64,000 bases of DNA, taken from assembly GCF_051903065.1 (NCBI RefSeq), contig NZ_CP178438.1, one strand, 5' to 3'. Of this stretch, positions 48,176 through 49,457 are shown piece by piece. Source of the stretch: Escherichia coli. GTDB lineage: Bacteria; Pseudomonadota; Gammaproteobacteria; Enterobacterales; Enterobacteriaceae. The position numbers and the translations under genes were made by a program. The notes beneath the pieces were generated by a model. That model searched no databases, was not told the origin of the DNA, and saw nothing but the letters and a program-made list of their open reading frames with translations. Each line of letters begins with the position of its first letter. The first letter of the stretch is position 1.

Positions 48176-48466
48176 GGATTATATAAAGGCTGTTTCGCTC
48201 ATTTTCATGAGAACTCAGTCGCTGCAAATGCCACACTATCCGTATGCGTCAATTCAGGGATAGATAACTCATTTGAACCGTCAATTCGCTGTCACTTACT
48301 TGCCCGGAAAAAACCGGCCCCTCAAAGGGTGGCTGGTAGCTGGCGGGATAAAACACTATTGCGATTTTATTCGCTTGTTTCGGTTTCCTGCCATGAACGC
48401 TCTTGTGCTTGTCTGGCCCAGGCATTCACGGTGCAGGTAATGGACGCATATTGAAGAAATAAAATT

Positions 48467-48811
48467 ATGAAAGTGATAAAGATAATTATTGCGATTACAG
48501 GTGTTATGATTATGGTGATGGCACATGACCTCGGTCACGAGATATATACGTCATATTTCAGGCCGTCAAGTCACGGAGTTGGTTTGGGATTTATCCGCTT
48601 TTATATGCTTTTTGTTCTCCTCCCCGTGGTATTCCTGACGCCATTTATAGCAAATAAGTACACGCACACACTATCTTGTATTGCAATATTATATTTATTG
48701 TTTTCGTGGGGCGGTTTGCATCCATTGCGAGTTATTTTAATGATTTTATCATTCATGCTATCGTATATGTCGGTGTTATTTTTAAAGAAAATTGATGCAA
48801 AAAGGAAATGA
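48467..48811 (+). CDS. Hypothetical small membrane protein (AT-rich region)
   Basis: 114-aa ORF with 3 or 4 hydrophobic segments; ATG start; no family recognised. Confidence 0.35.
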   Translation: MKVIKIIIAITGVMIMVMAHDLGHEIYTSYFRPSSHGVGLGFIRFYMLFVLLPVVFLTPFIANKYTHTLSCIAILYLLFSWGGLHPLRVILMILSFMLSYMSVLFLKKIDAKRK

Positions 48812-48976
48812 AATTCCAGATATATTTAAAAATATTTATGATATTAAACAAGAGAGGTTTTTATGTCATTAGTTTGCACAATAGAAAATAAATATGTTGA
48901 TAAATTTATGGCTATTCTGCTTTTAGGGGTTTTACACTCGCTGGAAAGGGGAGCAGTAACCATAGATGAATCTTAA

Positions 48977-49240
48977 TTGCTTGTTTTCTGTCCTTTTTTT
49001 GCCCGTACTCTACGGAGGAAAGGTTGTGATAAAGAATTACTAGATATAATTTATCATGGTTGTGAGCTTGAAGATATTGAATCGCTGATCCCTGAAAGGC
49101 TCGAGACTGTCATACAAGAACTAATTCTCCAAACAACCGATTTGATCTATACAAAAAGAGATGATTATCCCTTAAGTGATGAAAGGGAAAGCATGGTTTC
49201 CTTTGAATTTAGCAATAATAAGGATTTGCAGAGTGTTTAA
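48977..49240 (+). CDS. Hypothetical acidic small protein, possibly a decayed gene (TTG start only)
   Basis: 87-aa open frame with no in-frame ATG or GTG near a ribosome-binding site. Confidence 0.25.
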   Translation: MLVFCPFFARTLRRKGCDKELLDIIYHGCELEDIESLIPERLETVIQELILQTTDLIYTKRDDYPLSDERESMVSFEFSNNKDLQSV

Positions 49241-49454
49241 AGATAAAACTGTCGCAGCAGAAATTAGTGCATTAATGCTTGAGATTGGTGCGAAATTAGA
49301 TAATTCCGTTTCACTTGTTCAGAAAAGTTGCGATGAATCTGAGCTTAATACTTATCGTTCCGCCGTCGGTGAAATTATGGGGCGCATGTTAATCGACATC
49401 ATGAACCCCATCTATAAACAGCACTCCGAACTCAAACCTGAACAACTTAGCTGA
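49233..49454 (+). CDS. Hypothetical small protein (about 73 aa), overlaps the stop of the preceding frame
   Basis: GTG at 49233 preceded by AAGGA at 8 nt; GTGTTTAA overlap with the upstream stop; track ORF starts at upstream ATG 49176. Confidence 0.3.
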   Translation: MFKDKTVAAEISALMLEIGAKLDNSVSLVQKSCDESELNTYRSAVGEIMGRMLIDIMNPIYKQHSELKPEQLS

Positions 49455-49457
49455 ACA

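Follow-up and report, generated by a model that had tools for sequence, protein, structure and literature searches.

Immunity proteins against polymorphic toxins are small and cytoplasmic, and each neutralises one specific toxic C-terminal domain of a neighbour's CdiA or Rhs protein. The spot directly behind a CdiA-CT is the canonical position of cdiI (PMC3150448), and the orphan CdiI of EC93 is expressed and protective (PMC3150448). SUKH proteins, which are predicted to confer immunity and whose genes stand singly or in tandem arrays, have been associated with the idea of 'supernumerary' immunity genes (PMC3113570). Here, we analysed the interval between ybhL and ybhN in a 64,000-nt stretch of Escherichia coli DNA (contig NZ_CP178438.1, assembly GCF_051903065.1; the whole stretch is referred to as the window). 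This interval holds a DUF3969-family gene, a 73-aa gene from a large family without a name (hyp73) and a hydrophobic open reading frame (ORF) of 114 codons (orf114), and it probably represents a small orphan-immunity island that has decayed in part in this strain. Classical orphan cdiI and rhsI genes lie downstream of a cdi or rhs locus and are preceded by a leftover cdiA-CT or rhs-CT fragment. The window cassette, in contrast, has no toxin fragment and lies with housekeeping genes on either side, remote from any cdi or rhs locus.

An immunity function of DUF3969 and hyp73 is suggested by gene context, because relatives of both adjoin toxins. In two Proteus genomes, a DUF3969 gene begins 5 nt behind a full CdiA (Fil_haemagg_2 and PT-VENN; CdiA at 4043..8995, with the part from VENN to the end at L029 8240..8995, and DUF3969 at 9001..9339) or behind an orphan CdiA-CT. 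The ~90 aa after VENN in Proteus (...SIKDAPQYPxGF...GKWxKVY...VSVHYFQSQSGxVFxVKV) recur just upstream of DUF3969 on two other scaffolds, namely a 137-aa protein with a signal peptide in Xenorhabdus and a vgrG-rhsD...Rhs-core array in E. coli (45-66% identity, E 1e-22 to 1e-40). Remnants of this domain precede DUF3969 in Providencia (E 1e-8) and, weakly, in an srfB-linked enterobacterial locus (L011 type; E 0.002). DUF3969 genes thus stand directly behind CdiA-CT (after VENN) in Proteus and within an Rhs array of E. coli, and across scaffolds and genera the family co-varies with one and the same toxin domain. Since a single domain appears on three scaffolds with the same small family always behind it, the combination bears the signature of a toxin/immunity pair. 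One further DUF3969 gene belongs to a row of small genes and has a CDI_Immunity_Comp gene next to it. The ~90-aa domain itself has no relative in Pfam or PDB, PT-VENN aside, and NCBIfam, PADLOC and PHROGs gave no match to it either.

Searching the window and all allelic cassettes of the ybhN locus for the toxin domains by tblastn returned nothing. If DUF3969 is an immunity gene it would hence be an orphan, as no toxin domain resides in the locus, and we predict from its relatives' surroundings that it is an orphan CdiI/RhsI-type immunity gene. The idea that a toxin remnant is concealed upstream of DUF3969 in the window was discarded, as tblastn found no trace of one.

E. coli has a second site for DUF3969 that is unrelated to the ybhN locus: in strain S42, the rhs locus between yncH and pptA (L036 12001-12913) carries a toxin-domain fragment and DUF3969 within a vgrG-rhsD-IS-Rhs core array (IS, insertion sequence). 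The genes at this site are often frameshifted or truncated. In our population sample of 5426 complete E. coli genomes, ~600 covered at least 80% of this toxin-domain/DUF3969 module.

The DUF3969 gene of the window has a Shine-Dalgarno sequence (GAGAGG) 5 nt ahead of its ATG, and its family assignment is firm: the intact ortholog of strain EC42405 matched Pfam PF13108 over residues 10-89 (E 1.3e-17), and with the FDAARGOS_943 allele as query all relatives recovered were PF13108-tagged. A G-to-T change at 48974 has converted Glu38 (GAA), which is invariant across 27 family members, to a TAA stop, so the frame is interrupted and the product truncated after 37 residues. The allele of FDAARGOS_943 (WP_001602040.1), a genome 99.8% identical to the window, differs from the window copy at codon 38 only; position 48974 is a G in FDAARGOS_943, O169:H41 and EC42405. 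The three genomes with 100% identity to the interval have the same stop. Because 99.8%-identical genomes keep the gene intact, the nonsense allele is very recent, and because the product ends after 37 residues, its immunity specificity would be lost in this strain. AlphaFold modelled DUF3969 as a helical bundle with two short strands (predicted local distance difference test (pLDDT) score 85), for which a fold search found generic structural matches only. Apart from DUF3969 itself in Pfam, we found no match to the protein in Pfam, NCBIfam, PADLOC or PHROGs, sequence searches of the PDB brought nothing useful, and no paper of the literature searched names it.

The second gene, hyp73, begins with a GTG that overlaps the DUF3969 stop by 8 nt (GTGTTTAA) and has its own ribosome-binding sequence, AAGGA, 8 nt upstream. 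A full HMMER scan recovered 514 representative homologues at E ≤ 1e-3, mostly of 70-80 aa, with some tandem duplicates and few fusions to other sequence. N-terminal extensions of some homologues were considered as toxin fusions, a view we rejected since they look like mis-called starts. The AlphaFold2 model is a two-helix hairpin (pLDDT 97) without a significant match in a fold search, in which generic helical hairpins came up, and hyp73 has no match in Pfam, PDB, NCBIfam, PADLOC or PHROGs.

A locus search with a subset of closer hyp73 homologues recovered 11 loci. In L037, the start of a homologue with 54% identity overlaps the stop codon of an Rhs protein that has a YD shell and the core motif ...RYRDPFGK, behind which the Rhs protein continues with a Pro-rich linker and ...CDKIRDLAIDFCSDTSLPTQDNGFEFWNCVNKFMKEHGC, to end in ...GFEFWNCVNKFMKEHGC. 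The same Cys-rich tail (57-65% identity), with the motif ...GFxFWNCVNxxxxxxGC shared by Rhs and other proteins, directly precedes hyp73 homologues in L020, L021, L038, L039 and P0164. It does so in four settings: two Polyangium genomes, a second contig, a metagenomic lipoprotein-like gene with three hyp73 domains behind it, and an orphan Rhs fragment fused, in its gene call, to a hyp73 domain. Members of the hyp73 family thus stand directly behind a recurrent Rhs C-terminal tip, though many others are solitary, and we predict hyp73 to be a second immunity-type family. This assignment is less certain than that of DUF3969, because the Cys-rich tail is short and without a known activity; the tail has no counterpart in Pfam, PDB, NCBIfam, PADLOC or PHROGs, and the window holds no trace of it.

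In three Rhs-linked settings, a gene for a ~251-aa AAA_23/AAA_15 ATPase lies behind the hyp73 homologue (L037 3613-4368, L038 381-1136, the P0164 contig and L039 11168-11899), and none occurs in the window. The ATPase may be a third part of a hyp73/Rhs module.

The status of orf114 is more doubtful. Its product has Kyte-Doolittle hydrophobic segments at residues 1-24, 36-65 and 86-109. Since an ORF of at least 114 codons arose in only 0.8% of 2000 shuffles of 48441-49457, a frame of this length is not expected by chance at this composition. It is open in four alleles that diverge by up to 4%; against the 4%-divergent EC42405 allele it shows six non-synonymous and four synonymous differences, a ratio of non-synonymous to synonymous divergence (dN/dS) of 0.42. 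Pfam, NCBIfam, PADLOC and PHROG gave no match, homologues were limited to near-identical E. coli copies, and the frame has never been annotated in RefSeq and in one GenBank record only. Descent from a Bax inhibitor-1 (BI-1) fragment was rejected (best E 2.4 against YbhL, YbhM and the extra BI-1 paralogue described below). From these properties of the frame, a real gene is plausible but unproven, and orf114 may be a putative membrane immunity protein or no gene at all.

Divergence data indicate that selection has acted on the other two genes. dN/dS ranged from 0.27 to 0.39 between DUF3969 alleles and from 0.23 to 0.45 for hyp73 across Escherichia species; both genes are under purifying selection, and the dN of either is 10-100 times that of ybhN, clsB or moaE.

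If the orphan-immunity reading holds, the DUF3969 and hyp73 proteins would bind and block specific toxin domains from competitors' CdiA or Rhs systems. With no toxin gene in the locus, they would be orphan immunity genes that afford protection without a weapon, in keeping with the 'supernumerary' idea put forward for SUKH arrays (PMC3113570) and with the protective orphan CdiI of EC93 (PMC3150448). In this strain DUF3969 would be dead through its Glu38 stop and hyp73 intact with its own ribosome-binding site, while orf114 could be a third, membrane-embedded immunity gene. The immunity function, the toxins countered and the expression of the cassette genes are inferred here, the function from gene context.

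Table 1 Features of the ybhL-ybhN interval and its flanks in the window.
Feature	Coordinates	Strand	Description
ybhL	47426..48130	+	Bax inhibitor-1/YccA family; conserved left flank, 97% identical to K-12; from the PGAP annotation of 23CRST027
ybhL intrinsic terminator	48151..48174	+	stem CCCGGC/GCCGGG, loop CTGGT, T run; read from the sequence
BI-1-family remnant	48273..48440	+	55 codons, TTG start; 168 nt; no PGAP annotation
orf114	48467..48811	+	114 aa, ATG; hydrophobic ORFan, gene status uncertain
DUF3969-family gene, pseudogene	48863..49240	+	125 codons; PGAP 'DUF3969 family protein, internal stop'
Nonsense codon TAA	48974..48976	+	G>T at 48974; Glu38 (GAA) to stop
hyp73	49233..49454	+	73 aa, GTG start; PGAP hypothetical protein WP_001602041.1; large family without a name
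ybhN	49458..50414	-	right flank; convergent with hyp73, 3 nt apart

The features in Table 1 lie within the order moaABCDE, ybhL, interval, ybhN (minus strand) and clsB. We carried the annotation by the Prokaryotic Genome Annotation Pipeline (PGAP) over from E. coli 23CRST027 (NZ_AP045789.1), coordinate for coordinate, as this genome differs from the window by one mismatch in 49,295 nt. Since this near-identical match means that the allele has been sequenced repeatedly, we regard it as real and not as a sequencing artefact. The GC content of 48441-49457 is 35%, compared with ~52% in the flanks. An initial annotation, drawn up from the sequence alone, had described 48178-49457 as strongly AT-rich. 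In 300-nt windows this was borne out for ~48500-49400 (GC 0.29-0.38, against 0.50-0.57 on either side), whereas the first ~260 nt (48178-48440) have a GC of 0.44-0.49. The small ORFs it listed all exist, namely orf114, an 87-aa frame (48977..49240, TTG) and a frame of 92 or 73 aa, starting at 49176 or 49233 and ending at 49454. It had noted that the 87-aa frame lacks a canonical start; the frame is real, and is explained as the 3' part of the 125-codon DUF3969 gene after the nonsense codon. That codon was the one pseudogene-like stop that turned up on comparison with intact homologues.

No promoter or terminator rose above chance level within the cassette, and no flanking repeats, IS ends or Rfam RNAs mark it as a mobile element. 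The ybhL terminator was missed by a simple terminator scan. Its hairpin coincides with a weak, sub-threshold Rfam match to the small RNA SorX (48119-48175; 22.4 bits against a gathering cutoff of 46.6, E 0.016), which is probably nothing but the terminator hairpin.

The initial annotation had further stated that K-12 carries ybhM at this position, which is correct: ybhM spans 714 nt (237 aa) between ybhL and ybhN. As it stated, no frame of that size exists in the interval, whose longest ORF is orf114, and no correction of presumed sequencing errors restores a full-length ybhM. Its two proposals, a decayed ybhM or a different acquired cassette, each proved right in part. A decayed ybhM is indeed present, confined to 168 nt. 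The window is collinear with loci of the S42 and PT62 types (see below) up to 48291, that is, 19 nt into the extra BI-1 gene of those loci; 48349-48425 then match the K-12 ybhM 3' end at 72.7% nucleotide identity, and YbhM residues 203-234 align to 48336-48431 (32 residues, 44% amino-acid identity, E 1e-4), the reading frame being that of the TTG at 48273. As the 5' end of the extra BI-1 gene is joined to a divergent ybhM 3' end in one frame, we take 48273..48440 to be the remnant of an in-frame deletion. It does not encode a full-length (~235 aa) Bax inhibitor-1/YccA membrane protein, YbhM residues 203-234 alone being recognisable, and is presumably non-functional. In the window allele, ybhM and the extra BI-1 paralogue are reduced to this remnant, and the remainder of the interval is unrelated to ybhM: tblastn with BI-1 proteins found no match in 48441-49457. 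K-12 homology picks up again at 49438 on the ybhN side.

The other proposal, a different cassette, was right in that the set of orf114, DUF3969 and hyp73 is distinct, and doubtful in calling it acquired, as relatives occupy the same site in other Escherichia. At this site, E. whittamii and Escherichia sp. MOD1-EC7003 have the DUF3969-hyp73 pair or hyp73 alone; in E. albertii, a hyp73 fragment lies at a contig end with no flanks read. The synonymous divergence (dS) of hyp73 follows that of the flanking core genes, though it is somewhat higher (0.28 against MOD1-EC7003, with flanks at 0.21; 0.46 against E. whittamii, with flanks at 0.28-0.38). The K-12 ybhM-ybhN spacer retains the last 15 nt of hyp73 (AAAGAACTTAACTAA). 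Given the same-site relatives, a hyp73 dS near that of the flanks and the 15-nt leftover in K-12, an old accessory module of Escherichia that most E. coli have lost describes the cassette better than a recent acquisition does. Within E. coli, DUF3969 falls into two deeply split allele classes (dS ~0.9-1.0), and only a small lineage carries the orf114 segment and has lost ybhM.

The two other Escherichia differ in arrangement. In E. whittamii (L019 584-1089), hyp73 is the sole gene between ybhL and ybhN, and ybhM, the extra BI-1 gene and DUF3969 are all missing. In MOD1-EC7003 (L018 8219-8380), the region found upstream of ybhN in the window begins ~115 nt behind hyp73 and leads on to clsB, ~800 nt of ybhN seemingly having been deleted.

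Across the population sample, the flanks matched in 5424 of the 5426 genomes, only 35 of which covered at least 80% of a 3.6-kb query across the interval; in ~99% of complete E. coli, the flanks match and the interval itself does not. At least 80% of the 1327-nt interval was covered in 16 genomes, with 3/5426 at 100% identity, and the 422-nt segment with orf114 was present in 18/5426. The DUF3969/hyp73 cassette was found at the ybhL-ybhN locus in 39 genomes, or 40 if O157:H7 TR01, with only the last 53 nt of hyp73, is counted.

The locus is a mosaic of variant types. The K-12 type reads ybhL-ybhM; the S42 type has an extra BI-1 paralogue between these two genes, its start being matched by ~700 genomes; and the PT62 type carries ybhL, BI-1, ybhM, DUF3969 and a 75-aa gene. 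A ybhM pseudogene, DUF3969, a 152-aa gene, SUKH-4 and a 73-aa gene make up the 042 type. The EC42405 type, without ybhM, contains DUF3969, a 154-aa gene and SUKH-4, and no hyp73. In other strains, IS1 or IS2 is inserted in the DUF3969/hyp73 gene pair. SUKH-4 is absent from the window and present in the sister alleles EC42405 and 042.

Several junctions in these alleles deserve mention. In TR01 (NZ_CP033605.1 948068-948120), the 3' end of ybhM is swapped for the last 53 nt of a window-type hyp73 at 100% identity. The segment aligns to 49405-49457 of the window, the junction falls at a short CAT..ACC microhomology, and PGAP labels this ybhM partial; it looks like a recombination scar between alleles of the locus. 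In strain 042, ~70 nt of the DUF3969 3' end occur on both sides of the 152-aa/SUKH-4 module (L006 2166-2235 and 3498-3567), and 49152-49221 of the window match both copies, which suggests that modules were inserted or deleted through recombination between DUF3969 3'-end repeats. PT62 (L005 2622-2963) and RM9088 (L007 1979-2320) share an identical insert of ~343 nt between ybhM and DUF3969 (GC 49%, no convincing ORF) that is missing from 042 and MOD1-EC7003 and may be a small non-autonomous element.

How well does the orphan-immunity reading fare against its alternatives? It gains support from the sister alleles, because they carry a SUKH-4 immunity gene. A number of observations weigh against it. 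No Pfam, PDB or literature annotation ties DUF3969 or hyp73 to immunity, and the fold searches yielded generic helical bundles or hairpins only. Between the DUF3969 proteins of the ybhN locus and those linked to toxins, identity is just ~40-46%; many hyp73 homologues stand alone among unrelated housekeeping genes; and the Cys-rich tail measures ~45 aa and has neither a Pfam match nor a known activity. For orf114, the ribosome-binding site is weak, selection can be judged from ten substitutions, and PGAP skipped the frame. The nonsense mutation in DUF3969, together with the IS insertions in other strains, suggests that current selection is weak. These last lesions, one of them at an invariant residue, also speak for the cassette being an inert, decaying accessory leftover in this lineage, as do its loss from most E. 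coli and the lack of promoters convincing above chance. Where the cassette's state today is concerned, inert decay has to be taken seriously as an alternative. As an account of the interval we consider it unlikely, given that hyp73 is intact with a good Shine-Dalgarno sequence and the constrained dN/dS reported above, that the nonsense allele is very recent, with the gene intact in 99.8%-identical genomes, and that orf114 is open in all alleles.

Small genes in an AT-rich accessory location whose 8-nt overlap is a signature of translational coupling could also be a type II toxin-antitoxin pair, or a two-gene module of another kind for addiction or defence. We judge this quite improbable, as DUF3969 and hyp73 are no conserved pair: unrelated genes lie behind DUF3969 in Proteus, Providencia, Xenorhabdus and Salmonella-like loci, in E. 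whittamii and many phyla hyp73 stands without DUF3969, and EC42405 shows the reverse, DUF3969 without hyp73. Moreover, no toxin, antitoxin or defence family in PADLOC, Pfam, NCBIfam or PHROG matched either gene, and the loss of DUF3969 alone is tolerated. The 65-aa gene behind the Salmonella-like DUF3969, considered as a counterpart of hyp73, is unrelated to it, and hyp73 was dismissed as a conserved DUF3969 partner. That DUF3969 and hyp73 serve the cell alongside the membrane-lipid genes ybhN and clsB, and not in conflict between bacteria, would fit the position of hyp73 beside ybhN in E. coli and E. whittamii, and beside clsB in MOD1-EC7003, which lacks ybhN, as well as a divergence that roughly equals that of the flanks. 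It is highly improbable all the same, for neither family is linked to ybhN or clsB outside Escherichia and ~99% of E. coli do without the cassette. That the entire interval is a ybhM degraded past recognition is extremely improbable. The C-terminal remnant at 48336-48431 and the BI-1-like hydrophobicity of orf114 would agree with it; the empty BI-1 search, the dissimilarity of orf114 to YbhL, YbhM and the extra BI-1, and the two unrelated, conserved families in the rest of the interval do not. A pure ybhM wreck is refuted for 48441-49457, BI-1 origin being limited to the 168-nt remnant.

Elsewhere in the window, the 23CRST027 annotation places a partial integrase, an IS481 transposase and a frameshifted TnpB at 27367-35401, in the lambda attachment region that separates ybhC from bioA. 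The same segment contains a gtr-like O-antigen glucosylation set (bactoprenol glucosyl transferase, GT2, DUF6056) and a ybhB pseudogene with an internal stop.

As orphan immunity genes are an established phenomenon, no major concept is changed by our findings. The locus is of an ordinary kind, orphan immunity genes in a variable slot, and its added value is modest: a hypothesis on the function of DUF3969 and hyp73, two candidate toxin domains and an ORF without annotation. A bolder proposal, which we hold tentatively and put just short of an even chance, is that the ybhM-ybhN junction is a collection point for orphan immunity genes, like acquired islands of interbacterial defence, with two toxin/immunity pairs represented and orf114 as a third immunity gene. 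If so, one pair would consist of DUF3969 and a new ~90-aa CdiA/Rhs toxin domain, and the other of the 73-aa helical-hairpin family and a ~45-aa Cys-rich Rhs tail, often with the 251-aa AAA ATPase behind, whereas orf114 would counter a membrane-targeting toxin. The orphan-immunity reading itself, if right, would give a function to Pfam DUF3969 and to a large family (>500 representative clusters), each tied to one uncharacterised toxin domain. E. coli would then store toxin antidotes at a housekeeping locus far from toxin genes, which would bear on the survival of strains under contact-dependent warfare in the gut. For annotation, the analysis accounts for the 'missing' ybhM, flags a recent pseudogene and points to an ORF never called by RefSeq.

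Compared with K-12, the cassette occupies the slot of ybhM between ybhL and ybhN. The 237-aa multi-pass membrane protein encoded there in K-12 is absent from the window, where a 32-residue C-terminal remnant is recognisable and the cassette genes are unrelated to it. SUKH-family arrays (PMC3113570) resemble the locus: both line up small genes of the immunity type, unrelated to one another, and include no toxin. The window differs from them in holding no SUKH gene and two or three genes only, one of them a pseudogene, while its sister alleles do hold SUKH-4 next to DUF3969. With orphan cdiI and rhsI genes (PMC3150448), DUF3969 and hyp73 share small size and fast evolution, and both families have members right behind a CdiA-CT (after VENN) or an Rhs tip. 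The likeness extends to the same toxin/immunity module appearing on different scaffolds, and to AT-rich, mosaic loci whose alleles are exchanged by recombination.

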